DNA of 64,000 nt from Candidatus Fermentimicrarchaeum limneticum. GTDB lineage: Archaea > Micrarchaeota > Micrarchaeia > Burarchaeales > Fermentimicrarchaeaceae. The notes beneath the pieces were generated by a model. It saw only the letters and a program-made list of their open reading frames with translations. It had not been told where the DNA came from and made no database searches. The DNA is taken from NCBI GenBank assembly GCA_013426015.1, contig CP058998.1, forward strand, positions 1,050,758 to 1,114,757, in the 5' to 3' direction. The translations under genes were made by a program, and so were the position numbers. This document shows positions 26,636 through 45,837 of this stretch, piece by piece (within the stretch, counting starts at the first letter, position 1; the number at the start of each line of letters is the position of its first letter).

Positions 26636-26680
26636 GTTTATTACTGGAAAGTTACCCCCCTTCAGGAGGTTTATATACCC
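26636..26680 (-). repeat. Solo copy, in inverted orientation, of the tnpB 5'-flank element (ACTGGAAAGTTACCCCCC ... GTTTATATAC)
   Basis: Its reverse complement reads tataaacctcctgaaggggggtaactttccagtaataaac, matching the element 5' of both tnpB genes. It lies between the two T2SSF genes. Confidence 0.5.
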
Positions 26681-26842
26681 TGAGCTGGATATGCTTATAA
26701 GCTGTTGGAGCGGATGCAAATCCAGATTTCCAACAACCGAGTCCCAGTAAACGGACTCCTGCGTTCCGATGAAACTGGTTGCAACAATGCTGTGCATCTC
26801 AATCAACCTCTTGAAGGAATGCCCACTTCATAGGTGGGTAGT

Positions 26843-27700
26843 TTACGTGTGCGCCACAGGCCTCCTGGACTTTATGAATTCTATAAGCGCGACCTGGCAG
26901 AAGATGCAGAAGCCCACCAGACCAATGATGAAACCTTCATTCACGGATATCCCCCCAAATGTCGACAGCACCACCAGTAACGTTATACCTAAGCTTGGGA
27001 CGGCAACAGAGATTATAATGAAGAGCAGCACCCACAGGTTAAGCTCGTAGGTGTATGACTTTATCTGGGAGTACTGGTACTGCTGCAAATTCTTTATGAC
27101 GCTCTTAAGGGCAGCCTGCAGGCTTGCTCCTGACCTGAAGGCAGTGAGCATCTGCCGTATCGTCCTTCTCAGGAACTCGGATTCCGTTCTTAGCGCCATC
27201 TTCTCCAATGCAATTTCTTGCATTTCCCCTGCGTTTATATCCTGTACTGTCCGGCGGAACTCCTTTGAGATTGTGCCATAGCCTGCCTTTGATATGTTCA
27301 CCATTGCATCGAATAGAGGAACTCCGGAGCTTATCTGCAGCAGCAAATCCTTCAGGGCGTATACCAGATCCCTGTCCACATCCTCCACTATCTTCCTTGC
27401 AAGGACGCGCGGGTAGTACATGAAGAAGGATAGGAATACGAAGAAAACCAGCAATGCCGAGAAAAACAGCCACTTGATCTCGGTTATAAAATCACGCATC
27501 TTTCCCAGGGATGAGAATGCGGTGCTGATCTGCTCGGAGGTTATGTTCCCCCTCGCATAGCTGAGGATGAAGAGCAGGACGAATATTGCAAGAGCCCAGA
27601 AAACCGCATTTAAAATCGAGACTGATATGTACTCTCCCTTGTCAACATCGCTCCCAACCATCTTCAAGTCGTATTCCAGACCAGGGACGACATAGCTCAT
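26843..27700 (-). CDS. Second T2SSF-family membrane protein (TadB/FlaJ-like)
   Basis: It has three or more TM segments and a cytoplasmic helical domain (LKDLLLQISSGVPLFDAMVNISKAG). It is paired with the preceding T2SSF protein and FlaI-like ATPase on the same strand. Confidence 0.5.
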   Translation of the reverse strand: MSYVVPGLEYDLKMVGSDVDKGEYISVSILNAVFWALAIFVLLFILSYARGNITSEQISTAFSSLGKMRDFITEIKWLFFSALLVFFVFLSFFMYYPRVLARKIVEDVDRDLVYALKDLLLQISSGVPLFDAMVNISKAGYGTISKEFRRTVQDINAGEMQEIALEKMALRTESEFLRRTIRQMLTAFRSGASLQAALKSVIKNLQQYQYSQIKSYTYELNLWVLLFIIISVAVPSLGITLLVVLSTFGGISVNEGFIIGLVGFCIFCQVALIEFIKSRRPVAHT

Positions 27701-27788
27701 CTTGTTGCCTACCCCAGTAAAAGCTCTCCCAAAGCCTTTGGCAATCCTTTTCGGAATTATGAAGAAGAGAATCCTTATGCGAACACCC

Positions 27789-29552
27789 TCACAAAACTTT
27801 GTCTAAGGGAAGATTCTTCTCAGCAGCGCTCAGCACAACTTCTGGAGTTTTGTAATAAATCCCGACAACTCCTCCGACATCATCAACGCTCCTTATACCG
27901 TTCTTGCTCATCCAATCCAGAATCTTCATCTTATCACTAATATCCTTCGTTATCTCATCCTGGTTCATGCCGGTGTGCAGGTTCAAATCCTCAAGAACCC
28001 TCGTGCTCTCGTTCACCTTCTCGAATACGTCTGTCCTGGCCTTCCATTTGAACAAGGGATTGATGCTGACCGCCTCGACCGGCGATACCACCAGCTCGCT
28101 AATCTCATAAACCCTCCTTATCTCCTTCCTCCTGTCCCTGTATTGAACAACTATGAGCTGCAGCGTCTCCAGCTCGGTCATGGGCAGCTCTATTGGAGGA
28201 TGAGTCAGCCTCCTCAGCACCTGGGAAGCAGTATCTGCATGCATTGTTGAACAAACGGCATGGCCAGTGTGCATTGCCTCAAACAGGACTTCAGCCTCCC
28301 TTCTCCTCCTTATCTCTCCAACAACTATCCTGTCAGGTCTCATTCTCAGCGAAGCAAGCATGAGGTCAAGCATCCTGACAGCACCCTTCCCCTCTGGGTT
28401 TGCATTCCTCGTGGTCAGAGGCACCCAGTTCCATCTAAGATACTTGGGAAGGGACAGCTCTCTCGTATCCTCAATTGTAATCGTCCTGTTACTTGGCGGT
28501 ATAAGCGCGCACAGCGTGTTCAGGGTGCTCGTCTTACCGGAAGCAGTTCCACCAACTATGAGCGTGTTTATCTCGTACTGCATGCACAGCCACAGGAAGG
28601 CAGCCATCTCATTGGAAAGGGTGTTCATCTTCTGGCCAACAAAGTCAACAAGCGTCCAGGGGTTTCTTGAGAATCTCCTTATGGTTATCGTATTGCCGGA
28701 GCTTGAGACCGGAAATAAGGTTGCGTTTGCCCTGTCGCCCGTAGGCAGGTGCGCATCCAGTATGGGGGCGAGCAGACTTATCTCCCTCCCAGCCTTTCTC
28801 CCGATCTGTGCGGCATAGTTGTATATCTCCTCCTCGCTCTCCAATCTTAGGTTGGTCTTCATCCAGCCGAACTTCCTGTGATAAACAGATATGGGCTCTG
28901 AGGAGCCGTTGACTGCAACCTCCTCAAGCCAGTCGTCAGCCATGAGCATCTCAATGTCGCCAAGCCCGTACATCCTGTGCAGAAGAATTCCCGCAAGCAC
29001 CCTCCTCTTTCCCTCCTCAAGGGATGGTAGCTCCTCTGAAAGTTTGCTGAAAGCCGCGTTGTAGAACTTGTCCCTCACATCGGCAAACTTCCTCACGTCG
29101 CTTATCTCCTCGCTCTGAACGGTTATGACTCTCGCAAGCTCATCCCTCAGGTAATCCATGAAAACCTTGGTATACGGGCCGAGCTTCGGGGGGGATATCA
29201 AGTAGAGAGGCCTGCTCTCGCCCTTGATATCCATGATGTGGATGTTTGATGGAACGTAGTTAACCTCAATCTTGTAGCTTTCAACCACTTTTCCGGTTGC
29301 AGGTGCCTTGCTCTCATCAACAAGCTTGTTCTTCAGCTTCAGCTGCACTTTCTGCAGGATGTTTACAGGGTACATCACCTCAAGGATTCCCATGTCCTGC
29401 ATTATCTTGCCCAGTCGCTCGAGGCGGTTATGGTCAATGCCGAACCTGCTTGCAACTGCAGGCAGCTCTGCAGCCTGGTCCTTCTCAGAAGCCAGCGCCT
29501 CGCATATCTCGTCAAGTTTTGTCAAAATTACCTCAGAAGTTACTTCTGCCAT
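27789..29552 (-). CDS. FlaI/ArlI / VirB11 / PilB-family type IV pilus/secretion ATPase
   Basis: It has Walker A GGTASGKTSTLNTL and Asp/His boxes (ITIEDTRELSL, RPDRIVVGEIR). It is 587 aa with a long N-terminal domain. The annotated start may be an over-extension because a tnpB element ends 50 nt upstream. Confidence 0.7.
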   Translation of the reverse strand: MAEVTSEVILTKLDEICEALASEKDQAAELPAVASRFGIDHNRLERLGKIMQDMGILEVMYPVNILQKVQLKLKNKLVDESKAPATGKVVESYKIEVNYVPSNIHIMDIKGESRPLYLISPPKLGPYTKVFMDYLRDELARVITVQSEEISDVRKFADVRDKFYNAAFSKLSEELPSLEEGKRRVLAGILLHRMYGLGDIEMLMADDWLEEVAVNGSSEPISVYHRKFGWMKTNLRLESEEEIYNYAAQIGRKAGREISLLAPILDAHLPTGDRANATLFPVSSSGNTITIRRFSRNPWTLVDFVGQKMNTLSNEMAAFLWLCMQYEINTLIVGGTASGKTSTLNTLCALIPPSNRTITIEDTRELSLPKYLRWNWVPLTTRNANPEGKGAVRMLDLMLASLRMRPDRIVVGEIRRRREAEVLFEAMHTGHAVCSTMHADTASQVLRRLTHPPIELPMTELETLQLIVVQYRDRRKEIRRVYEISELVVSPVEAVSINPLFKWKARTDVFEKVNESTRVLEDLNLHTGMNQDEITKDISDKMKILDWMSKNGIRSVDDVGGVVGIYYKTPEVVLSAAEKNLPLDKVL

Positions 29553-29602
29553 GTTAAGAATTTTCCTTACTTAATATAAAAAGCTATTGTCTGCCCCTGC
29601 AT

Positions 29603-30766
29603 TTACTGTTTGTATAGTGACATGCTCCCACCTTGAAAGACGTGGGCTTCTTCTTTCATAGATGTTGCTACTGCAACATTTCCAGAAGCGTTACTTCCCC
29701 CTTGCCCAGGGGTAGCTCTTATGAGTATGTTAAGTGCGGAGTTCAAATCCCTATCTGTTGATAATCCACAATTGGGACAGTCGTATACCCTATTCCATAG
29801 AGTCAAACCATCTCTCATATTTCCGCACCTGCTGCACATCTTTGAAGTATCTCTCGGGTCTACAAACACCACTCTGCATCCAGCTCCTTCCGCCTTGTAT
29901 GCAAGCATGTTTGCAAACATATTCCACCCCGCATCGTTTATTTGCTTTCCGTAATTCTCTTCTGACATTTCTTTCGTGGCAAGCTCCTCCAGTGCAATGA
30001 TGGAATAATCATTTACCACTTGAGTTGAAATCTTGTGCAGGAAGTCTCTCCTGCAATCTGAAATTTTTTCATGCAGTTTAGCAACTCTTACCTTTGCTCT
30101 CTTCCTGCTGGTGCTGCCTTTCTTCTTCCTTGAGAACTTTCTTTGTATAAAGGCAAGTCTGTCTTCGTATTTCTTGAAATGTCTTGGGTTGTTTATTCTC
30201 ATACCGTTTGACAAGGTTGCAAATGTTTTTAGCCCCAAGTCAATTCCAACTGCCTCCCCCTTATTTTCTATTGGAATCTCTTCAGGTGTCTCAACACAGA
30301 AAATGGCAAACCACCTCCCAGATGATTCCCTTTTCAGAGTCAGGGTCTTGATTCTTCCAGTTATTTCTCTGTGCTTCTTTATTGCAATCTCACCAAAGGG
30401 AGTGATTTTGAGTTTCTTATCCAACCAAAACCCACATTCATATTGGGGGTAATGCAGACTCTTCATCCTGTCAAGAGACTTGAAACGCGGGAAGCCGCCT
30501 TTCTCTCCTTTTTTCTTCATCTCTATCTTCCTATGAAGGGCATCAACCAATCTATCAACAAGTTCTTGCCCTACCTGTGAAAACAAGCCGCTATCTTTAA
30601 CCAACTCTCTTAATGTTCTCTTTGTTGGGAATTTTCTATAGTTGTTATAAATCTCCTTTGTAAAAGAAAGCATTTCATTCCAGAGTTCCTTGGATACCCA
30701 CAAGTGCTTTTGCATTTCCTTTTCCTGTTTTTTGGAAGGGTAGATTCTGAATTTATAAGCTCTCAT
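29603..30766 (-). CDS. tnpB: IS200/IS605-family TnpB (OrfB, RNA-guided RuvC-like nuclease)
   Basis: It is 387 aa with the RuvC-I motif VGIDLGLKTFATLSNG and a C-terminal zinc finger CSRCGN...DCPNCG (...DTSKMCSRCG). The N-terminus MRAYKFRIYPSKKQ is typical of TnpB. Confidence 0.8.
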   Translation of the reverse strand: MRAYKFRIYPSKKQEKEMQKHLWVSKELWNEMLSFTKEIYNNYRKFPTKRTLRELVKDSGLFSQVGQELVDRLVDALHRKIEMKKKGEKGGFPRFKSLDRMKSLHYPQYECGFWLDKKLKITPFGEIAIKKHREITGRIKTLTLKRESSGRWFAIFCVETPEEIPIENKGEAVGIDLGLKTFATLSNGMRINNPRHFKKYEDRLAFIQRKFSRKKKGSTSRKRAKVRVAKLHEKISDCRRDFLHKISTQVVNDYSIIALEELATKEMSEENYGKQINDAGWNMFANMLAYKAEGAGCRVVFVDPRDTSKMCSRCGNMRDGLTLWNRVYDCPNCGLSTDRDLNSALNILIRATPGQGGSNASGNVAVATSMKEEAHVFQGGSMSLYKQ

Positions 30767-30834
30767 AGACGTTATTTACGTTTGTTTTTGCCTTTATAAA
30801 CGTCGTGGAGGGGGGTAACTTTCCAGTGAAAGAC
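29603..30834 (-). mobile_element. IS1341-like (tnpB-only) IS200/IS605-family element; boundaries are approximate
   Basis: The tnpB gene is combined with a conserved 5'-flanking element (TATA-like ctttataaac, then GGGGTAACTTTCCAGTGAAAG at 30794..30834) that is also found 5' of the second tnpB. The right end or omega-RNA region is not delimited. Confidence 0.45.
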
Positions 30835-31024
30835 TGAGATAACATATATTCTCTTTGTATAGCTCGCTTTCATCCCACCTCTGAAGAGCGTGGGGTTTCT
30901 CGCTCACTTCTGCTAATTTCCCTCCAGAAACCATAAGCTTTAAAAACAAAAGCAGCTCAAATTCCACCTAGCGACCAGTGAAAAAGATGAAATAATTAGC
31001 GCAGCTGGTCCCGTAGGGACAGGA

Positions 31025-33001
31025 ATGGCCAGCGTTTGCAGAAAAGACAGTCCTGTTTTTCGCTTTCTTAGCTCTGCAAAGACTCCACTCCTTAATACGA
31101 AAATTGAAGAAATCTTGAAGGTTTTTACCATTCTCTTATTGTTGGAAGGAGTCGCCAGAGGAGCGCCTACCTACTCTGACAATTCCACAAACTCAACGCT
31201 TGCAGGAACTCCTGTGGAGCATAGGCTGAACTGGCAGGACGCGGTCGGGCTGAGCGGCTACATCTTCAGTTTTTACAATGGTTCAAACACAACCATAGGG
31301 TGTATCGGGACACTTGATTGCTCAATATATGAAACGGCAGGAACTTGCAGCAACTGCTCACAGTGTGAATGGGCTGTTGGAGAATCCACACCAACTGTGA
31401 TTTTATATGAAGACTTTGACCAAGCAGGCAACGGAGCAGACGAGTGGGGTATGACAGATTGGACGGAAGTGACAAGCACTACAACTTGCGTAAATGATGC
31501 CAATGACGACTGCATACGTTCAAACACCAACGACAACCCAGTATATTACAGTAGCGATATAAACGTGAGTGCTTGTGATGCAGGAACGCTTTGGGTTTCT
31601 GGATGGACTTATGATTATGCGTGTGATAGCGGGGAGGATTTGAGCCTTGGGGTATCAGCCAACTCTGGTAGTAATTGGAACTGGCAGGTTGTAGACTTGG
31701 GTTCAGGAGCAACAGGTTCGGGAACTTTTAATGTCACTTTGGGTGATACTAATATATCTTCAACTTTCAGGATAGGCTTTGACACAATCAGTGTGGATAG
31801 CGGAGAGTATTTTGACGCAGATAATGTGAGAATCGGTTGTGTTGCTGAAGGAGAAAGTATATGCTTAGAAATAGGGGGTGGTGTATGTTCTGCCTGCGAT
31901 ATTGGCGAGTGCAACACCAACTGCTCGGATGCGGGGTGTTCATTGGATACAATTGAATTGGTGAATGATACTTGGGTCGCCTTCACCTCTGGGATGTGCG
32001 AAACTCCGTATGCCGATTGCTGGAGTAACGTGACAAAACTGGTAAATTCAACTATCGGAGCAACGATAAAGTGGTGCGTGTACGCTAACGACACCTCAAA
32101 CAACTGGAATTCAGTGTCCTGCAACACGCCTTTCGAGTACATAACAACATCCGCAAAGAGGCTGTTGGTAGACTGGCATACAGCATCTGTAGTTAATTCA
32201 ACAGTCTGCACCTCTGAAATCCCCTGCCAGTACAACCATTACCAGAATTTCACAGCAAATGCAACTGTCCAATGTTCGACAATTCCAGCAAGTCTGTCCT
32301 GCGGCTCTGTTAGCGGAGGCATCAGATACAACAACAGTGGGACTACACCAGACACCCTCATAAGCACAACACCAGGTGCAACTCCGTTCTTTACAGATAC
32401 TAACCCCCGCTCATGTGGCTCCCTCTCCGATACTGATTCATGCACATTGAACTGGGTTGTAAATGCTTCTGGGACAGGACCGGATACGAGGACCATCGAC
32501 ATTAACTTCACTTCTGACCAGCCTGACACCTCGCAAAACGATACTGCTGATGCATACATAACCATACCCGAACAAATAGTAGGTTTCACAATAACCCTAC
32601 CGGGACAGAATCCAGTTTATGCGGAGGAAGGAGGGAATGCCACCGTTGATATAGAGTTCAATCTAACTGACGGAAATACTGCTAGCAATGTAATTCCGTG
32701 CCTTGCTGGGACTGCAACGTGCCAAGATCCATCTCCCATTTTCAGATTCGATAACACCGGAACTGCGACTTTGAGTTGGTATATATACCTTGACAGCAAC
32801 CTTCCGGCAAGCATGACTCTGAAAGGAAATACAACCAACAACCCAGTAGGGGCCGCAACGATAACGTCAAGCGGCTGGCTGGTTGCAAGCTCCATCGCCC
32901 CAAGCGGCTCTCAGAATGCCTGGCTGTGGACGGATTTTTCAGGTGCCAGCGTGAGCGATGCAACAAACAAGAACTTGGTATCCAACACAACATCATCGTG
33001 A
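31025..33001 (+). CDS. Large secreted Cys-containing surface protein; start uncertain
   Basis: It has an N-terminal hydrophobic segment ILKVFTILLLLEGVARG and many N-x-S/T sequons. The C-terminal ~130 aa are paralogous to the 33103..33648 protein. Confidence 0.45.
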   Translation: MASVCRKDSPVFRFLSSAKTPLLNTKIEEILKVFTILLLLEGVARGAPTYSDNSTNSTLAGTPVEHRLNWQDAVGLSGYIFSFYNGSNTTIGCIGTLDCSIYETAGTCSNCSQCEWAVGESTPTVILYEDFDQAGNGADEWGMTDWTEVTSTTTCVNDANDDCIRSNTNDNPVYYSSDINVSACDAGTLWVSGWTYDYACDSGEDLSLGVSANSGSNWNWQVVDLGSGATGSGTFNVTLGDTNISSTFRIGFDTISVDSGEYFDADNVRIGCVAEGESICLEIGGGVCSACDIGECNTNCSDAGCSLDTIELVNDTWVAFTSGMCETPYADCWSNVTKLVNSTIGATIKWCVYANDTSNNWNSVSCNTPFEYITTSAKRLLVDWHTASVVNSTVCTSEIPCQYNHYQNFTANATVQCSTIPASLSCGSVSGGIRYNNSGTTPDTLISTTPGATPFFTDTNPRSCGSLSDTDSCTLNWVVNASGTGPDTRTIDINFTSDQPDTSQNDTADAYITIPEQIVGFTITLPGQNPVYAEEGGNATVDIEFNLTDGNTASNVIPCLAGTATCQDPSPIFRFDNTGTATLSWYIYLDSNLPASMTLKGNTTNNPVGAATITSSGWLVASSIAPSGSQNAWLWTDFSGASVSDATNKNLVSNTTSS

Positions 33002-33102
33002 TGGTATGAAAAGGAAAATCGAAATTCATGCTGAGAACGGGGAAACCCGTCTCAATTGTATAATATTTAAACGCCACAGGTCGGCGTCCGTGAGGTGGTA
33101 AA

Positions 33103-33648
33103 ATGGACCAATGGAAAAGAACCCTGCTGACAGCTACAGTGCTGATAGCGCTGGCTTCAGTAGTATATGCAGTCAAGTACACGACAACACTGACTTACTT
33201 CAACATTGCGACAGTGGAGTCCTTCACAGTGACTCTGCCGGGACAAGGTGCGGTTACAGCAACAACAGGTGGAGCATCAACTACCAACATAGAGTTCAAC
33301 TCTACTGATGGGACAGACAACTGCGTAGACCCATGCATTGCAAGCTCAGTCACATGCCAGGAGGCTGGTACGGCGATATTCGTGATAAGCAACACCGGTA
33401 CAGTAGCTTTGGATATGTCCGCGAACTTCTCGGCATCCCCGCCATCATGCGTCAAGGTTGGTGGATCCAACACTAGCAGAGCCGCAGCATGCACCGGAGC
33501 AATAATCGACACAACTCCAGTGACAATAATAGCAGACCTCGGACCAGGTTTGACTGCAAATTACTGGGAAGCAGCCAACTTCACTGCATGCACATCAGGA
33601 GACACAACCAGCAAGCTGCAGAGTGTAGGCGGAGTGCAGTCCAGCTAG
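33103..33648 (+). CDS. Small secreted protein, paralog of the C-terminal domain of 31025..33001
   Basis: It has a signal/TM segment LLTATVLIALASVVYA. FTVTLPGQGAVTATTGGASTTNIEFNSTDG aligns with FTITLPGQNPVYAEEGGNATVDIEFNLTDG of the upstream protein. Confidence 0.5.
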   Translation: MDQWKRTLLTATVLIALASVVYAVKYTTTLTYFNIATVESFTVTLPGQGAVTATTGGASTTNIEFNSTDGTDNCVDPCIASSVTCQEAGTAIFVISNTGTVALDMSANFSASPPSCVKVGGSNTSRAAACTGAIIDTTPVTIIADLGPGLTANYWEAANFTACTSGDTTSKLQSVGGVQSS

Positions 33649-33857
33649 ACAAAATACCTTCCATTTTGTTTTTTGGTAAATGAAAAAAGAGGTGGAAAGA
33701 TGCGGCAGATTGCCATCGTGCTGGAAACAGCACGGGAAGACATCGATACTCTGACCTCTGAGATAAAGACGAAGGTTGATGGGATAGGGAATGTGGAATG
33801 GGTAGGGTATCATGTCAAAAAATTGAGAAATGAAAGATTTGAAAAAAACTTTAGAAG

Positions 33858-34985: not shown

Positions 34986-34997
34986 AAAGATGAGTGC

Positions 34998-36683: not shown

Positions 36684-36692
36684 GGCAGTTGT

Positions 36693-37478
36693 ATGGATAA
36701 AGAGACCATAGGGATCATCTCTGGAAAAGGCGGTGTGGGGAAGAGCACAATAGCTGTAAATCTGGCAACATTATTCGCTTCATCGGATTATGATAACCTT
36801 TTGATAGATGGCGATACGTCCAACCCCAGCGTCGGGCTGCATCTGGGGATATGGCAGCATTCCTACGGTTTGCAGGATGTTCTTGAGGGAAAGATAACCC
36901 CTGAGGAAGCAATAGTCCTGCATCCCGCGACAGGGATACGGGTCATCCCCTCTTCACTGCGCTATGTTAAGGATGTAAGCATGAAAAACCTGTCCCGAGT
37001 TCTGGATTCAATAAAAGCTTACCAATGCATCACCATAGACTCGCCCCCTGGTTTGTCCAGCGAAGTAGAGGATATAATGGAAGCCTGCAGTAAGCTCATT
37101 GTAGTAACAACTCCCGATGTGCCAAGTGTGACAAGCGCAACAAAGATAGTTGACCTTGCCGAAACTCACAGGATACCTGTTGCAGGCCTTGTTGTGAACA
37201 GAATTGTGAACAAGAAATATGAGCTGCACATGCAGGAAATCGAGTCAATATGCAACACTAGAATAATTGGTAAGATACCAGAGGACTTCAGAGTGCCCGA
37301 AAGTATTGCCGTAAAGATTCCCCTCACGTTGTACTCCCCCAAATCCCCGGCAAGCACGGCGTTTAATAACCTCGCAACAGAGATCTGCGGAAAAAGGATA
37401 AGGACGCTCCGTGCAACAAGAGAAGGGTTATTGGGAAAAATTATCAACTTTTTTAGATCTGTCCTCGGAGGCAGCTAA
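36693..37478 (+). CDS. MinD/ParA-family P-loop ATPase
   Basis: It carries the deviant Walker A GIISGKGGVGKSTIAVNLA and is 261 aa. Confidence 0.65.
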   Translation: MDKETIGIISGKGGVGKSTIAVNLATLFASSDYDNLLIDGDTSNPSVGLHLGIWQHSYGLQDVLEGKITPEEAIVLHPATGIRVIPSSLRYVKDVSMKNLSRVLDSIKAYQCITIDSPPGLSSEVEDIMEACSKLIVVTTPDVPSVTSATKIVDLAETHRIPVAGLVVNRIVNKKYELHMQEIESICNTRIIGKIPEDFRVPESIAVKIPLTLYSPKSPASTAFNNLATEICGKRIRTLRATREGLLGKIINFFRSVLGGS

Positions 37479-37487
37479 TTTTTATTC

Positions 37488-38390: not shown

Positions 38391-38399
38391 GGTAATCAC

Positions 38400-38615
38400 A
38401 TGAAAAGGGAAGCGCTCTCGAAAGTTCTGAACAAACTGGCTTTTTTACAAGCAAATAAGGACAAGATTGTGAACAACCCTGATGAAGTAGAGCGGGTGGA
38501 AGGCGAGATAGCCGCACTGAAATACGTCGCTGAGAACAAGCCAAAAACGGAATTCGTGAGAGGGCTCATGCTCGGTTATCAGAAGGCTCTTGAACTGATT
38601 GAAAATAAAAAATAA
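38400..38615 (+). CDS. Small hypothetical helical protein
   Basis: It is 71 aa with coding-like composition and no recognisable motifs. Confidence 0.3.
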   Translation: MKREALSKVLNKLAFLQANKDKIVNNPDEVERVEGEIAALKYVAENKPKTEFVRGLMLGYQKALELIENKK

Positions 38616-38633
38616 AAAGAAAAAAATAAAATT

Positions 38634-38849
38634 CTAGGCGTTCTTCATCTTTGCCTTTGCCACGTATCCGCCCTTATCGAGATAATACATGTATCCTCGC
38701 TCCTTCATTATCTTCTCGTTCCCAACTTTCTTCTTCCTCCCACCAGTCTTGTGCTTCATGGGAGCGGCCCATACGTAGCCATCCTTCCCGACGAAGTAGA
38801 GGTAACCCTCCTCTCTATCAATCTTTTCCTTACCTATTCTCTGGCCCAT
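38634..38849 (-). CDS. Small basic protein with an internal tandem repeat; function unknown
   Basis: Two copies of a ~17-aa motif are present (EGYLYFVGKDGYVWAAPMK and RGYMYYLDKGGYVAKAKMK). It is Lys-rich and 71 aa. Confidence 0.35.
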   Translation of the reverse strand: MGQRIGKEKIDREEGYLYFVGKDGYVWAAPMKHKTGGRKKKVGNEKIMKERGYMYYLDKGGYVAKAKMKNA

Positions 38850-38936
38850 CGGCTCACCTCTTATTTTTTATCTGTAGCTTTAAGCTACGAGAGAGTTATC
38901 GTCGGTAGTGTTTATAAAGTTATCGTCGTAGACCGT

Positions 38937-39920
38937 CTATGAGTAGCTCCTCCTCATCCTTCCAACCCCTTTCACGGCAAACCAGAAGCACAGCACACTC
39001 ATCACTGCCAGCAGAATCAGCCCAGTGGCTATCTCTGCATCGGGGTAGTTGGAGGAGATCCTCGAGATGATAATCGTCGGCAGATACGCCGAAACCACGG
39101 AGCTTGGCAGGAGGATGGAGAAAACAAGCGCCATACCTGATAAGGATGAGAGGACGTTCGCCTCCTGTATGCTCCTCGCGCTTGCGGAGATGAGGACGCT
39201 CAGTGAAACAAGAATGAAGGAGAGCAAAAACTCCGTCACTATGAGCAGAGGTATGTTGTACACTGGTATCTTCTGCATCACTATCACGAGCCATGCTGCC
39301 CCGCATGCAGTCGATGAAACTACATACGGGAGAGTTTTTGACAGCGCAATGTCAAAATCGGAAATAGGCGAGACTAGAAGCAGCTCTATAGTCCTCTTCT
39401 TTCTTTCGCTGAGTACGTTCTGGATTGAGAGAGATAATCCGACCATTGCGGGCATCACAACTGCAATTGGAATGATGAGCCCGTAGCCCATCTGCACGAA
39501 GTCGGTGTTGCCTCCATACAATCCTTCCGAGGAGTAGCTGAAGTTCCCCTTCTCAAGCGCCTCCTCAAAAGAGATTGATTTCGAGACCGAGCTTATCTTG
39601 GCTATCGCAAAGCCGGAGAATATGTTGCTCGGGTCGGTCTTTATCTCCCCAGTGCTGGTGTTTATCACTGCGTTGACTCTCTCGAGTGTCTCCTCCCCTA
39701 CTGGTACAACTTTCACCCCAGACTCCTCCAGCTTGCTTATCAGCGCGGTGTTGTTGCCGTCCACGGCTATCGTTATCTTCAGGTTAGGGGAATGCATCAC
39801 CTCGCTGTACGTGTCATAAAGGAAGAGCAGCATGGAGATTGTTATGAACTGAACGAGTATGCTGCCTAGAAACGCCCTGTCGCTTGCAATCTCCCTCAGC
39901 TCCTTTTCCATCAGTTTCAT
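38937..39920 (-). CDS. ABC-2 family transporter permease
   Basis: It has an N-terminal TM, a large extracytoplasmic loop and five C-terminal TMs, the typical ABC-2 topology. It is adjacent to an ABC ATPase. Confidence 0.5.
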   Translation of the reverse strand: MKLMEKELREIASDRAFLGSILVQFITISMLLFLYDTYSEVMHSPNLKITIAVDGNNTALISKLEESGVKVVPVGEETLERVNAVINTSTGEIKTDPSNIFSGFAIAKISSVSKSISFEEALEKGNFSYSSEGLYGGNTDFVQMGYGLIIPIAVVMPAMVGLSLSIQNVLSERKKRTIELLLVSPISDFDIALSKTLPYVVSSTACGAAWLVIVMQKIPVYNIPLLIVTEFLLSFILVSLSVLISASARSIQEANVLSSLSGMALVFSILLPSSVVSAYLPTIIISRISSNYPDAEIATGLILLAVMSVLCFWFAVKGVGRMRRSYS

Positions 39921-39924
39921 AATC

Positions 39925-41445
39925 TCACCAAAAATGACTCAGAAGGTATATGTTGTAGCTCATGTGCAGCAGTATTGCAATGATGACTGCCAGCAAGAAC
40001 TGCCTCCTTGCATAACCTGCTCCTGCTATGCTGCTGCAGAGTGTATGCACAAGTATCGGCACGACCCTCACCAACACCATCATCTCAACAACCGGTGCGA
40101 GCAGCAGGCTCTCGCTAACACCGAAGGCAAGCCCAACAAGCGCACCGAGAATTGCTCCCTCCTTCAGTTCTTTTGGCTTCAAAACTTTCAGGGCGAATGC
40201 CTTGAGTCCCTCCTCAACTACAGTTACTGAAAGCAGCAGCAGCCCGACGCTCGGCCCTATGAGGAAGAACACCAGCCCTATTGCAACAATCTCGATAGGC
40301 ATGGTGACTGAGAATGCAACGAACCCCATTGCAAATGCAGCTTTTTTCCTGCTCCTGAGGATTTCCAGCATTCCTTCATAGAGCTGCCCTAGGCCGGGCT
40401 TTATTGCAAACGCAAACGCCTCTGTCGAGAACGCCGATAGGGCAAGCAGGAATGCCGTTGCGGTTATTATGTATATCACGAGCATCAAATTGAATGGGAA
40501 GGGGGTCGCCTCCCCTGCAACCTGCTCTGCGATGTACGTTGCAGGCGAAAGCTTCGCGGCAATCTCCGTTGCAGGGAAAACCTTCAGGATTGCAATGGAG
40601 AAGAAAAGTGTGATTATTATTGTTGAGGAGATGCTTGACGCAAGCGTTGCCTCTTTTGCGTTTGAAGCAATGGAAGAAACAAGCGCGTTCATCGTTATTA
40701 TGAGCAGAGCCATGCTGACCAGTATTATGTAAACTCCGAAGGGATTGGCGAAGTGCAGGCCAAAGAACGGAACGAGAAACATCCAGACCGCCCCGAGCAG
40801 CATTGCGAAAACCAGGTTGCTCAGTATCTTCGAAGCAAGCACCTCAACTCTCCTTGAAGGGGATGCAAAGATGACTTCAACAACCTTGTTCTCCCTCTCA
40901 TAAGCTATGCTTTCTATTATCGGCAGGGACCAGATGAAAAGCGGTGTGAGCAGCAGGAAAGGCGCAAGCAGGCTCCTAAGAAGCTCCTCCAGCCCCAGGT
41001 CAGATTTCAGGTTGAACAAGAGCTCGGAATCCTTCCTGAGAAACTTGTCGACTGCTTCCCTGACAGCTGATTCTGCAAGGTTTGAAAGCGGAATCCCTCT
41101 CCCTATGAAGCTTCCGCCAGTTGAGTTCACAATGAAAACGCCGTGCACCCTTCCCTCCCCAAGAAGTTCCATGGCAGTTCTTTCATCCGTCTTGACTACC
41201 TCCACCATGTTGTTTTTCTCAAGCTCAGCTAGGAGAGGATGCTCCCCAACAACCGCAATTTTCACCATCTTCTCAGAAACCGGCATTGCAGAGAGCAGGT
41301 TTCCTTCCTTGAAGCGTCCCACTGCTTCCATTAGAAGCGGGATTGTGAAGAGGGATATAAGCATTCCTAAAAGTACGCTAGCAAGAAACCTCCTGTCCGA
41401 AAATATCCCCCTGAGGTTCCACCATACCATGACACCTAGGCCCAT
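39925..41445 (-). CDS. ABC-2-like membrane permease with a C-terminal extra polytopic domain (possible CPBP-like motifs)
   Basis: It is a 506-aa polytopic membrane protein. The C-terminal region carries VVEEGLKAF, VPILVH and LLHMSYN, which loosely resemble the EExxxR / FxxxH / HxxxN motifs of CPBP intramembrane proteases. Confidence 0.4.
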   Translation of the reverse strand: MGLGVMVWWNLRGIFSDRRFLASVLLGMLISLFTIPLLMEAVGRFKEGNLLSAMPVSEKMVKIAVVGEHPLLAELEKNNMVEVVKTDERTAMELLGEGRVHGVFIVNSTGGSFIGRGIPLSNLAESAVREAVDKFLRKDSELLFNLKSDLGLEELLRSLLAPFLLLTPLFIWSLPIIESIAYERENKVVEVIFASPSRRVEVLASKILSNLVFAMLLGAVWMFLVPFFGLHFANPFGVYIILVSMALLIITMNALVSSIASNAKEATLASSISSTIIITLFFSIAILKVFPATEIAAKLSPATYIAEQVAGEATPFPFNLMLVIYIITATAFLLALSAFSTEAFAFAIKPGLGQLYEGMLEILRSRKKAAFAMGFVAFSVTMPIEIVAIGLVFFLIGPSVGLLLLSVTVVEEGLKAFALKVLKPKELKEGAILGALVGLAFGVSESLLLAPVVEMMVLVRVVPILVHTLCSSIAGAGYARRQFLLAVIIAILLHMSYNIYLLSHFW

Positions 41446-42365
41446 TTTCCTCCCCTTGTAACTGCTACGAAGACATCTTCCAGAGATGGGTCCATCGTTT
41501 TTATGGAGAGGACTGTCGCCTTGAGCTTCTTCGCCTTGTCATGCACCTTTGACATGGTGCTGTTCACATCCTTCACCTTCACTATCACTAACCTGCCGTC
41601 AACACTCCCCCCAACTTCATCCGCAAACTTTCCGATAAGGGAATCCTCCTTTATCACGATTCCCAAATAACGTTGTTTGGCAACTTTCGCCTTAAGCTCC
41701 TCGGGCTTGCCGATAGCAGCTATCCTTCCCCTGTTGATGACTGCAAGCTTGTCGCAGAGGAAATCCGCCTCGTCCATGTAGTGAGTGCACACCAGAATCG
41801 TCTTTCCACTCCTCCTCATACTCTTGATTCTCTCCCTCACATCTCTGGAGGAGGCAGGGTCCAACCCCATTGTTGGCTCGTCAAGAATTAGAACTGGCGG
41901 ATCGTGTATCAGCGCTCTTGCCAAGGATATTCGGTGCTTCATCCCCTTCGAATACTCGCCAATCTTCCTCCTTGCATGTTCAGTCAAACCCACAAACTCC
42001 AGCAGCTCGGGAATTCTCTCCCTCCCCGATCCATAGACATCAGCGAAGAATGAGAGGAACTCCTCCCCGCTCATGTAGTCATACACCCGTGGCTCCTCAG
42101 GAAGATAGCCGACGATGGAGCGGACTTTCTGCGAATCCTTCATGATGTCGTACCCCAAGATGCTTGCAGTACCTGAGGTTGGTGAGAGAACAGTGCACAG
42201 CATTTTAACGAGCGTGCTCTTTCCTGCACCGTTAGGACCGACAAGACCCAGTATCTCGCCTTCTCTCACAACAAGGCTGACTCCGTCGACTGCGGTGAGA
42301 TCTCCAAACTTCTTCGTAAGCCCGAAGGTTTCTATCACAAGTAGATATTGGAATGCTTTGCACAT
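41436..42365 (-). CDS. ABC transporter ATP-binding protein
   Basis: It has Walker A GPNGAGKSTLVKML, Walker B ILDEPTMGLD and the signature-like YSKGMKHRISLARAL. The true start is probably the in-frame GTG at 42338 (M-IETFGLTKKFG), because the annotated ATG lies within a hairpin at the tnpB 3' end. Confidence 0.65.
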   Translation of the reverse strand: MCKAFQYLLVIETFGLTKKFGDLTAVDGVSLVVREGEILGLVGPNGAGKSTLVKMLCTVLSPTSGTASILGYDIMKDSQKVRSIVGYLPEEPRVYDYMSGEEFLSFFADVYGSGRERIPELLEFVGLTEHARRKIGEYSKGMKHRISLARALIHDPPVLILDEPTMGLDPASSRDVRERIKSMRRSGKTILVCTHYMDEADFLCDKLAVINRGRIAAIGKPEELKAKVAKQRYLGIVIKEDSLIGKFADEVGGSVDGRLVIVKVKDVNSTMSKVHDKAKKLKATVLSIKTMDPSLEDVFVAVTRGGKWA

Positions 42366-43492
42366 TTATTAATGTGCTTCCGCCCTCGTCTGCTCAGTCA
42401 TCGGCGGTTCTGGGCTGAAAGCAACAGCCCCGTCTGAGAGCATGTAGCTCTCAAACCTCTTCAGGATATTCATCGCACCATTATAATCTGCATTTGCCTG
42501 GTATTTGCAGTTAGGACATTTGAATAAACCTTGCTTCACTCTCTTTCCTTCCTCGCCGCATCTGCTACATGTTTTACTGGTGTAATCTTCCCTGATTTTC
42601 ACAACTGCAATCCCCTTGAGATGTGCCTTGTATTCGATGAAGAAGGAGAGTCTGTTGAATGGGAAGGAATTGACTATCCTGTTGAACCTCTTACCTTTAC
42701 CGCCTTTCCTTATTCCCTTCAAGTCACCTAAAACAATTATTGAGTCATTCTTTTCTGCCAGCTCTACAATCTCTTTTGACACTTCATGTAAAACCAGTTC
42801 AACTCTCCTCTTCTCCTTACCTCTTATTTCTTTAAGTTTCTTGAACAACTTCCTTTCCTGCAGCCTCTTTCTCAGCCAGGCATGGTGCCTCCTAATCCCC
42901 CTTACCTCCCTGCCAAGGAAGATTGGCTTTCTTTCACTGGACAGCACGGCCGCCGCTATCACTTTCTCGCCAACATCCAGGGCAAGTACGGAAGAGTATG
43001 AAGTTTTCAGCTGAACCTCTTTCCTTATGGTGATGTAAATCCAGAAGTCCTTTTTTCTTTTGAACAGTTTTGCTTCCCTTATCTCCCAAGTAAAATCTAT
43101 CTCCTCATGTGGCTTTATGGGAAGCCAGATGCCTCCTCTTTTGCCTTTAACAGGAATTCTGAACCAGTAAGGAGTGAGTTTGTGGTTTGTGATTTTGAGT
43201 TTGGTGGATTGATTAGCCAGAGGCATAGGTTGTTTTTTCTTCCTTGATTTTATTTTGTATTTGAAGTTGAAAGTTGATTTTGTTAAGGAGTAAATTCCGA
43301 AGTCTCTGCCACTTCTGATGTAAATCTGAAAGTTAAGGTACTCTCTATCTAGCAATCCAAGCTTCTTTCTAGTTGGGTTGAAAACCTTGCATTTAAGAGT
43401 CTTTGAAATAAGCATGATAAACCATCAATTCTCGTCTTTATAAACCTCTGTAAGGGGTAACTTTCCAGTAAAAGTGGATTTATGTGCAAAGC
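42355..43492 (-). mobile_element. IS1341-like tnpB-only element flanked by an 11-bp inverted repeat (GCTTTGCACAT ... ATGTGCAAAGC); boundaries are approximate
   Basis: The 5' flank (43436..43492) carries ctttataaac followed by GGGGTAACTTTCCAGTAAAAG and then ATGTGCAAAGC. The 3' flank has the reverse-complement 11-mer at 42355..42365 and a hairpin GCACAT-ttatta-ATGTGC spanning the tnpB stop codon. Confidence 0.45.
42369..43415 (-). CDS. tnpB: IS200/IS605-family TnpB (OrfB), second copy, diverged from the first
   Basis: It is 348 aa with the RuvC-I motif LALDVGEKVIAAAV and a C-terminal zinc finger DYTSKTCSRCG...CPNCKYQANADYNGAMNI. Confidence 0.75.
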   Translation of the reverse strand: MLISKTLKCKVFNPTRKKLGLLDREYLNFQIYIRSGRDFGIYSLTKSTFNFKYKIKSRKKKQPMPLANQSTKLKITNHKLTPYWFRIPVKGKRGGIWLPIKPHEEIDFTWEIREAKLFKRKKDFWIYITIRKEVQLKTSYSSVLALDVGEKVIAAAVLSSERKPIFLGREVRGIRRHHAWLRKRLQERKLFKKLKEIRGKEKRRVELVLHEVSKEIVELAEKNDSIIVLGDLKGIRKGGKGKRFNRIVNSFPFNRLSFFIEYKAHLKGIAVVKIREDYTSKTCSRCGEEGKRVKQGLFKCPNCKYQANADYNGAMNILKRFESYMLSDGAVAFSPEPPMTEQTRAEAH

Positions 43493-43515
43493 CATCTTGG
43501 AACTAAACTTTAAAT

Positions 43516-44073
43516 TCACTGCGTCTCAGAATCAGGCTCCCTTTTCCTGAATCTGCTGCCAGGCTTCCTGTCCTTCATCATGCTCCTCAGGAATTCAACT
43601 GCCTTGTTGAGCTGTCCGGAATCTATGTCCTTCATGCATATCTCATAATTCGTCTTAGCGCTGGCCGTGTCAAGATACAGGTCAGCAAAACCAAATATTA
43701 TCCCGAGGAAGGACCGGTCAACCTTTATATTTGTTATCCCATCTATGGGGACAAGGTGCTCATCAGGCGCGACAACGCCAAACTTCCATATCACATCATT
43801 CTCGGTTATCTCATAGGTTGTGTACCACTTTCTGTAGAACTGCTGCATTACGAGAAGCCCAAGGAGGAGGAGCACCCCGATACCCGCGATGAACACGTAA
43901 TAGGCATAATCGGGATACAATACCGCCAGACCTATAATTGCTATAATCACCACGACTGCAACAGCCGCTATCATCATTATGAATGGTTCCACCTTCGGCT
44001 TGAGTGTGAAGACAGCTTCCATGGAAGTATTCCTCAAATGCAATTTAAATTTATGCGCCCGCAAACTCAGCAA
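43516..44073 (-). CDS. Membrane protein with two TM helices and a bacterial PH-like (YdbS/YdbT-type) domain
   Basis: It has two N-terminal TM segments (IMMIAAVAVVVIIAIIGLAVLY and VFIAGIGVLLLLGLLVM) followed by a ~100-aa soluble domain, the topology typical of bPH_2 proteins. Confidence 0.35.
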   Translation of the reverse strand: MLSLRAHKFKLHLRNTSMEAVFTLKPKVEPFIMMIAAVAVVVIIAIIGLAVLYPDYAYYVFIAGIGVLLLLGLLVMQQFYRKWYTTYEITENDVIWKFGVVAPDEHLVPIDGITNIKVDRSFLGIIFGFADLYLDTASAKTNYEICMKDIDSGQLNKAVEFLRSMMKDRKPGSRFRKREPDSETQ

Positions 44074-44148
44074 GCCTTTTCAGAGCTCTTTGGATAGATT
44101 GCCATAGTGGAGTGGGAGTCCGCAATGCCCGTCCTCACCCACCTCGCC

Positions 44149-45105
44149 TTACACATCCTCAATTCCCTTGGGAGTGACTTTGAATATCGCCTCTCCCTCA
44201 GGCATCGAAGGGCTGTCCACCAACCTGGCAATCCTCTTCTCCTCCTTCCCCTTCCTAAGATAAATTCGGTAAACGGCAGCATGCGCAAGAACATGCCCCC
44301 CTATTGGTGTTGTCGGGTCTCCAAAAAGTATCGCAGGGTTGTCCATAACTTGGTTAGTTACATAAACTGCCAGATTATACCTGTCTGCAAGCTTCTGCAG
44401 CGCATGAATGTGCTTGTTCAGCTTCTGTTGTCTCTCGCTCAGCGCGCTCCTTCCAAGGAAATCGGCTCTGAACTGGGACGTTAAAGAATCAACAACTATG
44501 AGCTTTATGTTATTCTTCTCTATCATCTCATCTGCCTTGTCAACAAGAATCATCTGGTGGTCTGTGTTAACTGCTCTGGCCACGTGGAGATTCTTCAAAA
44601 TCTCCTCAGCGTTAAGCCCTCTTGACTCAGCAATCTGCTTCACCCTCTCAGGTCTGAAAGTTGACTCTGCATCTATGAAGAGGCATGCGCCATCCAAACC
44701 GCCTTTCTCCTTTGGTAGCTGAACATTCACTGCAAGCTGGAAGCCGAGCTGGCTCTTGCCAGAACTGAATTTACCGAAGGTCTCGGTTATTGACTGCGTC
44801 TCAACCCCTCCTCCAATCAGATTGTCAAGCTCCTTCGAGCCAGTGGTTATCTTGCCAATACATTTTCTCCTCTCAAGAATCTTATCCGCAGTCTCATAAC
44901 CCATTTCCAATGCGTCCCTTGCGGCAGCTATCGTCTTCTTTGCGGTTTCAACGCCTATCTCGGCAACCTCCTGCAACTCATGAGGAGAGGATGTGGCTAT
45001 CCTCTCAAACGAATCGTAGCCTGCCCTCTTGAGCTTCTCGGCAGTCGCCTCACCGACTCCGGGCAAATCCTCAAGGTTCTTTACCTTCTTTTCCTCCTTT
45101 GCCAT
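44149..45105 (-). CDS. radA: DNA repair and recombination protein RadA
   Basis: It has an N-terminal HhH ([20 protein letters not shown]), Walker [23 protein letters not shown] and [12 protein letters not shown], and is ~320 aa. The start is trimmed to MAKEEKK. Confidence 0.75.
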
Positions 45106-45116
45106 GTGAACACCTC

Positions 45117-45707
45117 TCATAAGCCATAGAATCCATTCTCAATCCTGAACTTGGGCAGAGCATGCTTCAGCCTGCCGTACAAAGAAACGAACTCCTCCGC
45201 CTCCTTGGTCACGTACTCCAATATTTTTTCGTATTCTTTATTTAAATACCACAGGGGGATCTTCTCGCCGTCATGGGGCTTGTTGCAGAACTTGTCAAGC
45301 CCGCTTCCGGCGAACTTGAAGCCGTTCATACCCAGGCATATGTGCTTCAAGTCAATCCTAGGGAGCTGGTTGAACAGGAACCACTCGTCATATACGATTC
45401 CGTGCTTTGCGGCTCTTGCCTTAAGCATTCCCAAATCAAACATGAGGTTCTGCCCAACGGGAATGAACTGCCAGGTCTTTTTCGGGTTGATTAACTTGGA
45501 GAGTTCCCTTATCACTCCCTCCTCGCCCATCTCCCACTCCTTCAGTATCCGCAGCGGTTCCACAGGTCTGCCGGACTCGTCAAGCCTCTGGAACTGGATT
45601 GTGATAATCTTGTACTTCTCCGGGCGTATCTCGCTCTCTCCCCGTATGAAAAGCTCACGCTCATCCTCATCGCATCCAATTTCCGTGTCGAAATAGTACT
45701 CTGCCAT
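45117..45707 (-). CDS. DEDD-type 3'-5' exonuclease-like (RNase H-fold) protein
   Basis: It has Exo I-like YFDTE, Exo II-like NLMFDLGML and a later Y-x3-E/D segment, and is 196 aa. Confidence 0.4.
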
Positions 45708-45730
45708 TGATTAGTTCACCTCCGGCTTGC

Positions 45731-45786
45731 TTTTAAACCTGAGGGTAGGGTAACTTTCCAGTGAAAGGTGAATTTATGTGCAAAGC
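45731..45786 (+). repeat. Solo copy of the tnpB 5'-flank element with no adjacent tnpB
   Basis: It reads ttttaaacctgagggtaGGGTAACTTTCCAGTGAAAGgtgaatttATGTGCAAAGCac, which is ~85% identical over 55 nt to the 43436..43492 copy. It lies in the intergenic region between divergent genes. Confidence 0.5.
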
Positions 45787-45837
45787 ACAGTGATTCACCA
45801 GTGAATTATATAAATTAAAACATTCAAAAATAAAAGC

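Follow-up and report, generated by a model that had tools for sequence, protein, structure and literature searches.

A compact promoter module probably shared by host genes and unrelated mobile elements in a clade of Micrarchaeota

Why does the same short repeat stand in front of two tnpB genes and, twice more, apart from any within a single stretch of archaeal DNA? The stretch in question, here called the window at its full length of 64 kb, comes from Candidatus Fermentimicrarchaeum limneticum (Micrarchaeota), and its T2SSF protein encoded at 25617-26618 shows 100% identity to one of that species. A first-pass annotation took the repeat for the left end, promoter included, of IS1341-like tnpB-only insertion sequences (IS), and its two solitary copies for remnants or for derivatives of the type of miniature inverted-repeat transposable elements (MITEs). 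All four copies that it listed (A to D) are present, the two tnpB genes (29603..30766 and 42369..43415) are confirmed by TnpB domain matches, and so are the two T2SSF genes that flank copy D. Comparison with related loci suggests another reading, in which the repeat probably serves as a compact promoter module, in use by host and mobile elements alike within a single Micrarchaeota clade (Ca. Fermentimicrarchaeum and its relatives). The module consists of a TATA box and an upstream element, and its copies in the window are as follows.

30793..30832, minus strand: copy A, TATA box at 30793-30800, 9-nt spacer, GGGGGGTAACTTTCCAGTGAAAG at 30810-30832
43437..43474, minus strand: copy B, TATA box at 43437-43444, core at 43454-43469
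45730..45762, minus strand: copy C, the host promoter copy, TATA box (TATA2) at 45730-45737, core at 45747-45762
26643..26677, plus strand: copy D, core at 26643-26660 on the minus strand, TATA box at 26670-26677; the module is the terminus of a D-type element

The element and its spacing in the window

The 16-mer GGGGTAACTTTCCAGT occurs exactly at 26643-26658 (minus strand), 30812-30827 (plus strand) and 43454-43469 (plus strand), and with one mismatch at 45747-45762 (plus strand). When up to three mismatches are allowed, the window has exactly four matches; shuffled sequences had 0.55 on average, and four were reached in none of the 100 shuffles. A profile hidden Markov model built from 15 copies scored the four window copies at 41-53 bits and the next best match at 5 bits, and the element is therefore discrete and not a diffuse promoter consensus.

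A TATA box lies 9-12 nt 5' of every copy in the window. Read in the sense of the driven gene, the order of the module is ACTGGAAAGTTACCCC, 10 or 12 nt, TATA box, 21-26 nt and ATG. Written in full it is 5'-ACTGGAAAGTTACCCC(CC), a spacer of ~8-10 nt that is first C/T-rich and then purine-rich, the TATA box, which is frequently palindromic (TTTATAAA or TATTTAAATA), and the start codon. Copy A drives tnpB-A leftward, the ATG at 30766 being 26 nt past the TATA box, and copy B drives tnpB-B, with the ATG at 43415 and 21 nt past the box. The TATA box that had been annotated ~25 nt upstream of the tnpB ATG is thus borne out, with the geometry of leaderless transcripts. At copies A, B and C taken together the distance from the TATA edge to the ATG is 21-26 nt, which is consistent with archaeal core-promoter geometry.

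The upstream element measures 15-22 nt and is asymmetric, whereas the sites of typical dimeric helix-turn-helix (HTH) proteins are not. Among the ~50 gene upstream regions listed for the window, just one has the module as a host promoter. Copies B and C have in common the extension GTG(G/A)ATTTATGTGCAAAGC, at 43476-43492 and 45767-45786, as annotated at first. The element is not a known RNA: Rfam searched at gathering thresholds matched no RNA family anywhere in the window, and there are no tRNA genes in it. In a full-text literature search for the element sequence the sole match was an unrelated primer, a search for 'Micrarchaeota' and 'TnpB' together found nothing relevant, and exact-protein look-ups of RadA and P0038 gave no match.

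Two other interpretations of the repeat were discarded. Copies A and D were reported as an inverted pair (I1) by a repeat finder; this is a by-product of two independent insertions, with no composite element. A hairpin CTTTC-CAGT-GAAAG, whether in DNA or in RNA, was rejected because the GAAAG arm is lost in copies that were not selected on it; among the compared loci (denoted by L and a number), L081 has CCAGTAACC, L083 CCAGTGAGG and L018 CCGAAAAAC.

The module at other loci

The comparison set comprised the window and 77 fetched loci. Scanning one genome per species with GGGTAACTTTCCAGTRAWA gave 20 matches, 11 of them in Micrarchaeota metagenome-assembled genomes (MAGs), and the scan of metagenomes gave 57 loci, ~40 of which are of the same archaeal type. 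All 58 archaeal copies of the set possess the TATA box; for 53 its distance from GGGTAAC is 10 or 12 nt, and extra G's account for the two-base difference. The box was found in none of the 28 non-archaeal (bacterial) matches to the 19-mer and in none of the 29 matches to the 15-mer in viral contigs; the latter, all without a TATA box, were dismissed as chance.

Of the 58 copies, 29 have a start codon beyond the TATA box, at 39-57 nt from the element. The genes on this driven side are many and unrelated, and include three TnpB families, PIN, LAGLIDADG, ORF196 (an open reading frame, ORF, of the window described below) and small ORFs. On the side of the element the distances to genes range from 33 to >300 nt, with several convergent neighbours; genes 45838 and 31025 are served by nearer TATA boxes of their own. 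Fixed geometry on the driven side and variable geometry on the other argue that the element is best placed upstream of the B recognition element (BRE) and TATA box of the promoter that it would serve. Calling the direction from the BRE itself was dropped, no clear BRE consensus being found in the window gene upstreams.

The module is also retained at host loci. Three syntenic groups, on contigs from different samples, keep it (L008/L035/L056, L019/L069/L052 and L033/L054); the host loci with the module across metagenomes are two small-ORF loci and one other, and in a single MAG it precedes an MCM-like N-terminus.

The exonuclease-radA promoter

The host locus for which the evidence is most complete is that of copy C, which precedes the ATG of ORF196 at 45707, with radA next.

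44149..45707, minus strand: host operon, ORF196 (45117-45707) and RadA (44149-45120)
45806..45815, plus strand: TATA1, own TATA box of the divergent 445-aa gene (ATG 45838), conserved in relatives
45767..45786, strand not assigned: IS-B tip sequence GGTGAATTTATGTGCAAAGC, within a ~42-nt insert between TATA1 and the element

ORF196 is DEDD/PolB-exonuclease-like; its homologs have PF10108 or PF13482, and there is a weak RNase T match. The candidate assignment as a TnpB fragment was rejected, BLASTP having found no similarity, and ORF196 is a conserved DPANN exonuclease-like protein. Relatives keep the gene order, with the 445-aa gene on one side and ORF196-radA-(DUF763)-bPH_2-ABC on the other, and the element is found at the orthologous exonuclease-radA promoter in L080-L086. 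In L081, L083 and L085, in which ORF196 is 68-77% identical, the intergenic region runs from the ATG of the 445-aa gene over ~25 nt to TATA1, over a further 4-18 nt to ACTGGAAAGTTACCC, over 9-10 nt to TTTAAAAG and over ~24 nt to the ATG of ORF196. When this region was aligned between the window, L080, L081, L083 and L085, the mean column identity was 67% (ORF196 68-94% identical), and the longest invariant block was ACTGGAAAGTTAC.

At the radA element of L083 and L085 there is no transposon tip or hairpin. Since the element stands at orthologous radA promoters without a transposon end, copy C appears to be the host's own copy and not a solo remnant, and the earlier view of the solitary copies keeps its force for copy D, which is MITE-like. 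The ~42-nt insert, which ends in the IS-B tip, is found in the window and in L080 (a 94% relative) and is absent from L081, L083 and L085; the simplest account would be that IS-B inserted beside the host element and that a deletion between two module copies followed. Copy C had also been suggested to donate a promoter to gene 45838, which has its own conserved TATA1 and so needs no donated promoter.

In L080 a 67-aa HNH-endonuclease-like ORF (3789-3992) is inserted between the TATA box of the module and ORF196; the window has the same GAGGTGAACTAATCA before ORF196 as L080 and no HNH gene. RadA carries an intein with a LAGLIDADG domain in L081 (4588-7104), L082 and L084 (830-838 aa), and is without intein in the window (44149-45120, 323 aa), L083 and L085.

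The tnpB elements of copies A and B

The first-pass annotation placed copies A and B at the left ends of tnpB-only elements. Both do lie within the left-end regions of such elements, and in neither case is the repeat the left-end boundary. The features that define these elements are the following.

29617..30912, minus strand: IS-A, 1296-bp tnpB-only element, delimited by the homology of >12 copies
29603..30766, minus strand: tnpB-A, 387 aa, with OrfB_IS605, Cas12f1-like TNB domain and HTH domain matches
30874..30894, strand not assigned: IS-A left-end subterminal hairpin CCCAC-N11-GTGGG, conserved in at least 20 copies
29617..29760, minus strand: IS-A structured 3' region, omegaRNA-like scaffold and right-end hairpin, with covariation over 13 copies
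1214..1231, strand not assigned: empty target site GTAAAGCTT|TTAATTACG, junction 1222/1223
42355..43492, minus strand: IS-B, 1138-bp tnpB element, defined by terminal inverted repeats (TIRs), a 9-bp duplication and empty sites
42369..43415, minus strand: tnpB-B, 348 aa, with TNB domain and NCBIfam guided_TnpB matches

Over the >12 copies of tnpB-A the homology extends, in window coordinates, from 29617 to 30907-30918. The right end terminates at GGTGGGAGCATGTCAC (29617); the left-end tip is at 30912 and is flanked by TTAG (30913-30916, minus strand), for which other copies have TTAAC or TTAA. From the outside inwards the parts are the flank, the CCCAC..GTGGG hairpin, a variable spacer of 46-87 nt between hairpin and module, the element, ~10 nt, the TATA box, ~26 nt and the ATG, and in the window copy the element lies ~80 nt inside the tip. 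L087 and L088 have the same neighbour genes with no IS-A between them, and these empty sites show that insertion took place after TTAG and that 30912 is the left-end tip. The TTAC inside the element, which had been read as the cleavage or target tetranucleotide, is therefore not the cleavage site: the tip derived from >12 copies and two empty sites is ~80 nt beyond the element, past the hairpin and at a TTAA(C)/TTAG flank.

In its ends IS-A belongs to the IS200/IS605 type, having subterminal hairpins on both sides (GCCCAC..GGTGGG at the right), no TIR and no target site duplication (TSD); its flanks, aaattag| and |tatacaaac, contain no duplication. It resembles the tnpB-only IS1341 group of that family in these traits as well as in the 4-5-nt flank (TTAAC, TTAA, TTAG), in an omegaRNA-like 3' region and in a promoter between the left-end hairpin and tnpB. 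Unlike an IS200/IS605 left end, the element is internal, and it is common to a TIR/TSD-type element and to host promoters. Compensatory changes were found in 12 of the 27 predicted pairs of the 3' region (13 copies), whose predicted structure is as expected for an omegaRNA scaffold, and tnpB-less derivatives elsewhere keep this region. The RuvC residues of TnpB-A appear intact (ALEEL, TDRD), and relatives at 60-81% identity occur in many Micrarchaeota; for this abundant TnpB family of Micrarchaeota the analysis defines the true ends as well as the target motif and the omegaRNA region. No tnpA gene (Y1 TnpA) was seen in the window, the fetched loci not having been searched for one.

Relatives of IS-A at 62-63% identity in other DPANN archaea are without the element. 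L078 (Aenigmarchaeota, TnpB-A relative at 63% identity) has the same left-end hairpin, a TTAAC flank and its own TATA box, and no element; it is likewise missing from L079 (62% TnpB-A identity) and from a second IS-A-like copy at L049 (4383). These three copies show that a transposon of the IS-A type does not need the element, which does not behave as an essential part of an IS200/IS605 left end.

IS-B is built differently. It has 16-bp TIRs (GCTTTGCACATAAATT), with GCTTTGCACATAAAT.. at 43476-43492 and 42355-42370, and in the window a 9-bp target duplication, TTCCAAGAT (43494-43502) and TTCCAATAT (42345-42353); in L053 the duplication is GCTTCCTTT, present twice, and in L037 there is none. The IS200/IS605 hallmark of lacking both TIR and TSD was accordingly absent when IS-B was examined for it. 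The extension GTGRATTTATGTGCAAAGC that copies B and C have in common is the IS-B terminal repeat, and the element lies 4 nt inside it. In the empty sites of L081, L083, L085 and L086, bPH_2 is followed directly by the ABC ATPase, and a single target copy stands between the TATA box of the operon and its GTG start. IS-B thus occupies a position between the TATA box and the GTG start of an ABC-2 transporter operon, which as a consequence is probably now read through from the transposon.

At residues ~224-230 of TnpB-B a Gly occupies the position of the RuvC-II catalytic Glu (IIVLGDL versus IQMEDL of a solved Cas12f-like protein), and the TnpB-B homolog of L037, 83% identical, has the same change; IS-B nevertheless looks mobile. 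TnpB-A and TnpB-B are 31% identical over the C-terminal 143 aa, and a third TnpB family (L025, L046) with the same module is ~25% identical to both. Copies A and B therefore belong to different kinds of element, and their earlier joint assignment to IS1341-like elements was abandoned on the identity of the two TnpBs and on the presence of TIR and TSD in IS-B and their absence from IS-A. The occurrence of the module in three TnpB families that are 25-31% identical indicates that it was not inherited together with tnpB.

Elements without tnpB

Copy D forms one end of a mobile element that has no tnpB.

26641..26846, plus strand: D-type tnpB-less mobile element, ~206 nt, comprising the module, ~130 nt with two hairpins, and GCCCACttcataGGTGGGTAGTTTAC

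It is held by a ~226-nt insertion (26617-26846) between T2SSF-1 and T2SSF-2, for which L087 and L088, with T2SSF genes 4-5 nt apart, provide the empty site. At another locus of L087 there is a second D-type copy, the homology of which starts exactly at ACTGGAAAG and ends at GGTAGTTTAC, and the element is conserved in L071 and L077. The hairpins of the insertion are GTTGGA..TCCAAC and GAGTCC..GGACTC; its fold was not better than that of shuffles (z = -1.36), and the left flank of D, considered as an IS-A omegaRNA, was rejected on the lack of a match with an nhmmer profile of 19 IS-A 3' regions. By the missing profile match and the unremarkable fold D is a separate element family, for which the second copy and the empty site provide the support. 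Between the three relatives (the window, L071 and L077) the segment 26619-26842 is nearly identical, the flanking coding DNA being ~94% identical.

A further tnpB-less element is found in L067 at the site orthologous to 1222/1223, which is empty in the window. This 370-nt derivative of IS-A contains the right end with omegaRNA, the TATA box, the element and the left-end hairpin, and comparison with the empty site of the window gave the same end structure as that of IS-A. Empty sites, with which the first-pass annotation had suggested a comparison, were thus found for IS-A, IS-B, the D insertion and the L067 derivative.

Protein-less IS200/IS605 derivatives that retain the omegaRNA have been described as palindrome-associated transposable elements (PATEs; Meers et al., PMC10055086). 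The L067 derivative, with its empty site in the window, and the D-type element, present at two loci and with empty sites in L087 and L088, can both be counted among PATEs or MITEs. The derivatives in L002, L004, L023, L030, L043, L057, L066, L067, L068 and L076 are PATE-like in that they have lost tnpB and kept the right end and the omegaRNA, and most also retain the left-end hairpin. Unlike PATEs, the derivatives here keep the TATA-plus-element module. Also unlike PATEs, one subfamily (the Sv174-type tnpB-less copies, n=5) has the TATA box 22-23 nt before the first omegaRNA stem (CTAC..), with differing spacer sequences, and the D-type element ends in the module and has no left-end hairpin.

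The copies in L002 (~3900 and ~7700), L004 (~3860), L068 and L076 resemble stand-alone promoter-plus-omegaRNA genes. In L072 (~10016), L024 (~897) and L058 (~2800) two LAGLIDADG-like genes and one PIN-domain gene start 42-57 nt behind the module, and L058 has an IS-A-type left-end hairpin besides it.

Proposed role of the module and alternative explanations

It is established how the module is built and spaced, that A, B and D lie in insertions, that C is conserved in the host, and that related IS outside the clade are without the element. We infer binding of the element by a protein, its control over the adjacent TATA box and its exchange by recombination, from host to mobile elements or in the reverse direction. 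The TATA box would direct transcription away from the element and give rise to leaderless or short-leader transcripts, and the element, ~30-55 nt upstream of the start codon and just upstream of the BRE/TATA region, would be recognised by a lineage-specific DNA-binding factor. Archaeal activators and repressors that act on the recruitment of TFB and TBP bind just upstream of BRE/TATA. A few host promoters would make use of the module, most clearly the divergent exonuclease-radA promoter with copy C. The module is likewise part of the 5' promoter in no fewer than four unrelated mobile families (IS-A, IS-B, the third TnpB family and the D-type), and it is found in their tnpB-less derivatives before the omegaRNA region, as well as before PIN, LAGLIDADG and HNH genes. 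The most likely role of the element, as judged from sequence, would be that of a site for a lineage-specific upstream regulator.

Several points, besides the asymmetry of the element, weigh against this proposal. Because the collection of loci relied on exact matches to the element, the counts of tnpB linkage and the conservation within the 19-mer are biased. About 40 of the 58 copies (~40/58) lie within mobile elements or their derivatives, and the host copies could be old domesticated transposon ends. On the driven side there is no protein gene in L004 (which has an omegaRNA-like region there), L007, L009 (3672) and copy D of the window, and ORF196 of the window has a Shine-Dalgarno sequence, GGAGGTGA, between TATA box and ATG, a poor fit with a leaderless start. 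The direction of transcription and the regulatory role are predicted from geometry and conservation, and the factor itself is putative.

The view closest to the original annotation is that the element is part of the left end of tnpB transposons and that the unlinked copies, that of radA included, are remnants or MITEs co-opted by the host, the transfer having gone from transposon to host. It is favoured by the fact that the majority of copies are in IS-A, IS-B, the third TnpB family or deletion derivatives, by the IS-B tip sequence at copy C, and by D being a mobile mini-element that ends in the element itself. Ca. Burarchaeum, moreover, has the exonuclease-radA pair in synteny without the element, and this suggests that the host copy is not ancient. 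However, the radA element of L083 and L085, which has neither tip nor hairpin, stands 4 nt and ~10 nt from two TATA boxes, at least four syntenic host loci retain the element across divergent genomes, and the 40-nt module is the sole commonality of three TnpB families, a pattern that acquisition of a host-specific element explains better than descent does. The element is missing from IS-A relatives outside the clade, and cleavage at TTAC has been refuted. The annotation had itself named the motif unlinked to tnpB, and tnpB insertions without this flank, as findings that would speak against it, and each was encountered in part, the former as modules at host promoters and the latter in L078, L079 and the second L049 copy. 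We regard this view as unlikely, although with a real chance of being right. A narrower form of the favoured explanation, in which the factor is named, holds that the element is a site of an Orc1/Cdc6-type protein (winged-helix and AAA+), related to the origin recognition box (ORB) or the DNA-damage element of Sulfolobales, and marks a replication/repair regulon into which homing-type selfish nucleases have entered. TTTCCAGTGAAAG contains TTCCAGTG and the TTCC/GAA cores of the euryarchaeal ORB, with a G-run 4 nt away, and the ORB consensus is GTTCCAGTGGAAAC-AAA----GGGGG (PMC1868953, PMC1904270). The likeness to ORB and mini-ORB lies in the TTCCAGTG dyad core and the nearby G-run (PMC1868953, PMC1904270), but relative to ORB the G-run lies on the other side and strand, TTCC and GAA are one base closer together, L081, L083 and L018 lack the GAAAG arm, and the copies are single, each tied to a TATA box and without origin context. 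When the dyad TTCCAGTGGAA, a 3' G-string and an AT-rich cluster by orc1/cdc6 were looked for, the dyad was matched in part and the set as a whole was not found; in the window there is neither an AT-rich unwinding element nor an orc1/cdc6 gene. ACTTTC in the element matches the Orc1-2 element ANTTTC, which in damage-response genes of Sulfolobales precedes the ATG by 23-55 bp (PMC6061795). Here ACTTTC is 30-50 nt from the ATG, on the strand opposite the driven gene, and a six-base match of low information content is weak evidence. Both are short, promoter-proximal elements of short-leader genes, the Micrarchaeota one at a recombination operon (PMC6061795), but the phylum differs, six bases are in common, and the block conserved here measures 15-22 nt. 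Host copies at exonuclease-radA and MCM-like genes fit an Orc1/Cdc6-type site, while the other host loci have no obvious link to replication or repair, and we consider it quite unlikely.

It could also be supposed that the module fires towards the element, which would then span -12 to +8 of an outward promoter for a small RNA or for neighbour genes. The TATA boxes are palindromic, and a co-oriented gene is found within 40-330 nt in ~14 of the 18 copies of the first set. Since the insertion split the coupled genes, T2SSF-2 has no TATA box upstream other than that of D, and the IS-A left-end hairpin with its T-run could terminate such an RNA. Set against this, the downstream gene distances (33 to >300 nt) have no fixed geometry, genes 45838 and 31025 have nearer TATA boxes of their own, copy B, L008, L019 and L001-760 face convergent genes, and the host radA TATA box at a fixed 10 nt serves ORF196 and not the 445-aa gene; outward firing is very improbable. 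Hardly conceivable is that a nuclease-dead, RNA-guided TnpB such as TnpB-B works as a transcription factor (a TnpB-like nuclease-dead repressor, TldR) and has the 16-20-nt element as its DNA target. The length and asymmetry of the element would suit a guide target, Gly replaces the RuvC-II Glu in TnpB-B and in its 83% homolog, and orphan omegaRNA genes are common in these genomes. Yet the matches with up to three mismatches in the window are the four TATA-linked copies, with no guide-like extra copy, nothing related to the element adjoins the right end of IS-A, IS-B or D, and IS-B, which is multi-copy with TSDs and deletion derivatives, behaves like a mobile element and not like a domesticated gene. 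The guide-target idea was set aside, no complementary guide being found in the window.

To our knowledge, next to nothing has been learned about how DPANN archaea regulate their genes, and the promoter module favoured here offers a sharply defined cis-element with fixed TATA geometry and a handle on the predicted regulator of the radA operon. Its sequence, its fixed pairing with a TATA box, the conserved host recombination operon and its sharing by unrelated mobile elements in one DPANN clade are new; IS200/IS605 ends, PATEs that retain omegaRNA and host-regulator sites in mobile elements are kinds already known. LexA boxes in bacterial prophages, integrons and IS promoters are such host regulator sites. 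The module would be like them in that selfish elements reuse a host operator and their expression follows a regulon that includes a recombinase gene; it is unlike them in being archaeal and in having a regulator that is only predicted. The same 40-nt module in unrelated transposons of one lineage, with other promoters elsewhere, points to exchange of promoters between host and mobile elements, and if it is tied to recombination or repair, the expression of TnpB and omegaRNA would be coupled to the machinery that TnpB needs for homing.

A bolder form of the proposal, which we hold to be unlikely, gives the Micrarchaeota a recombination/replication regulon (exonuclease-radA, MCM) with the element as its operator or activator site, a site that selfish nucleases would each have captured, the factor being perhaps of Orc1/Cdc6 type. 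Three TnpB families, stand-alone omegaRNA genes, LAGLIDADG and HNH would in that case be expressed together with the host recombinase, and the spread of the capturing selfish nucleases depends on homologous recombination. With an Orc1/Cdc6-type factor, the regulon would be a DPANN counterpart of the Sulfolobales Orc1-2 damage response.

Other observations in the window

A second, unrelated repeat of promoter type, CAACCTATATTTT(T)AATA, occurs in two gene upstreams (~19350-19387 and ~20080-20120), ~24-31 nt before the ATG. In 9473-17182 six to seven paralogous genes with internal DNA repeats (families D1, D4, D5, D8, D9, D13 and D15) stand side by side, and the two genes of this run that were tested encode radical SAM proteins. 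Two large paralogous Laminin_G_3 (concanavalin-like) proteins with common repeat blocks (families D2, D3 and D6) are encoded at 20121-25613, where they adjoin a type IV pilus-like ATPase/T2SSF cluster.

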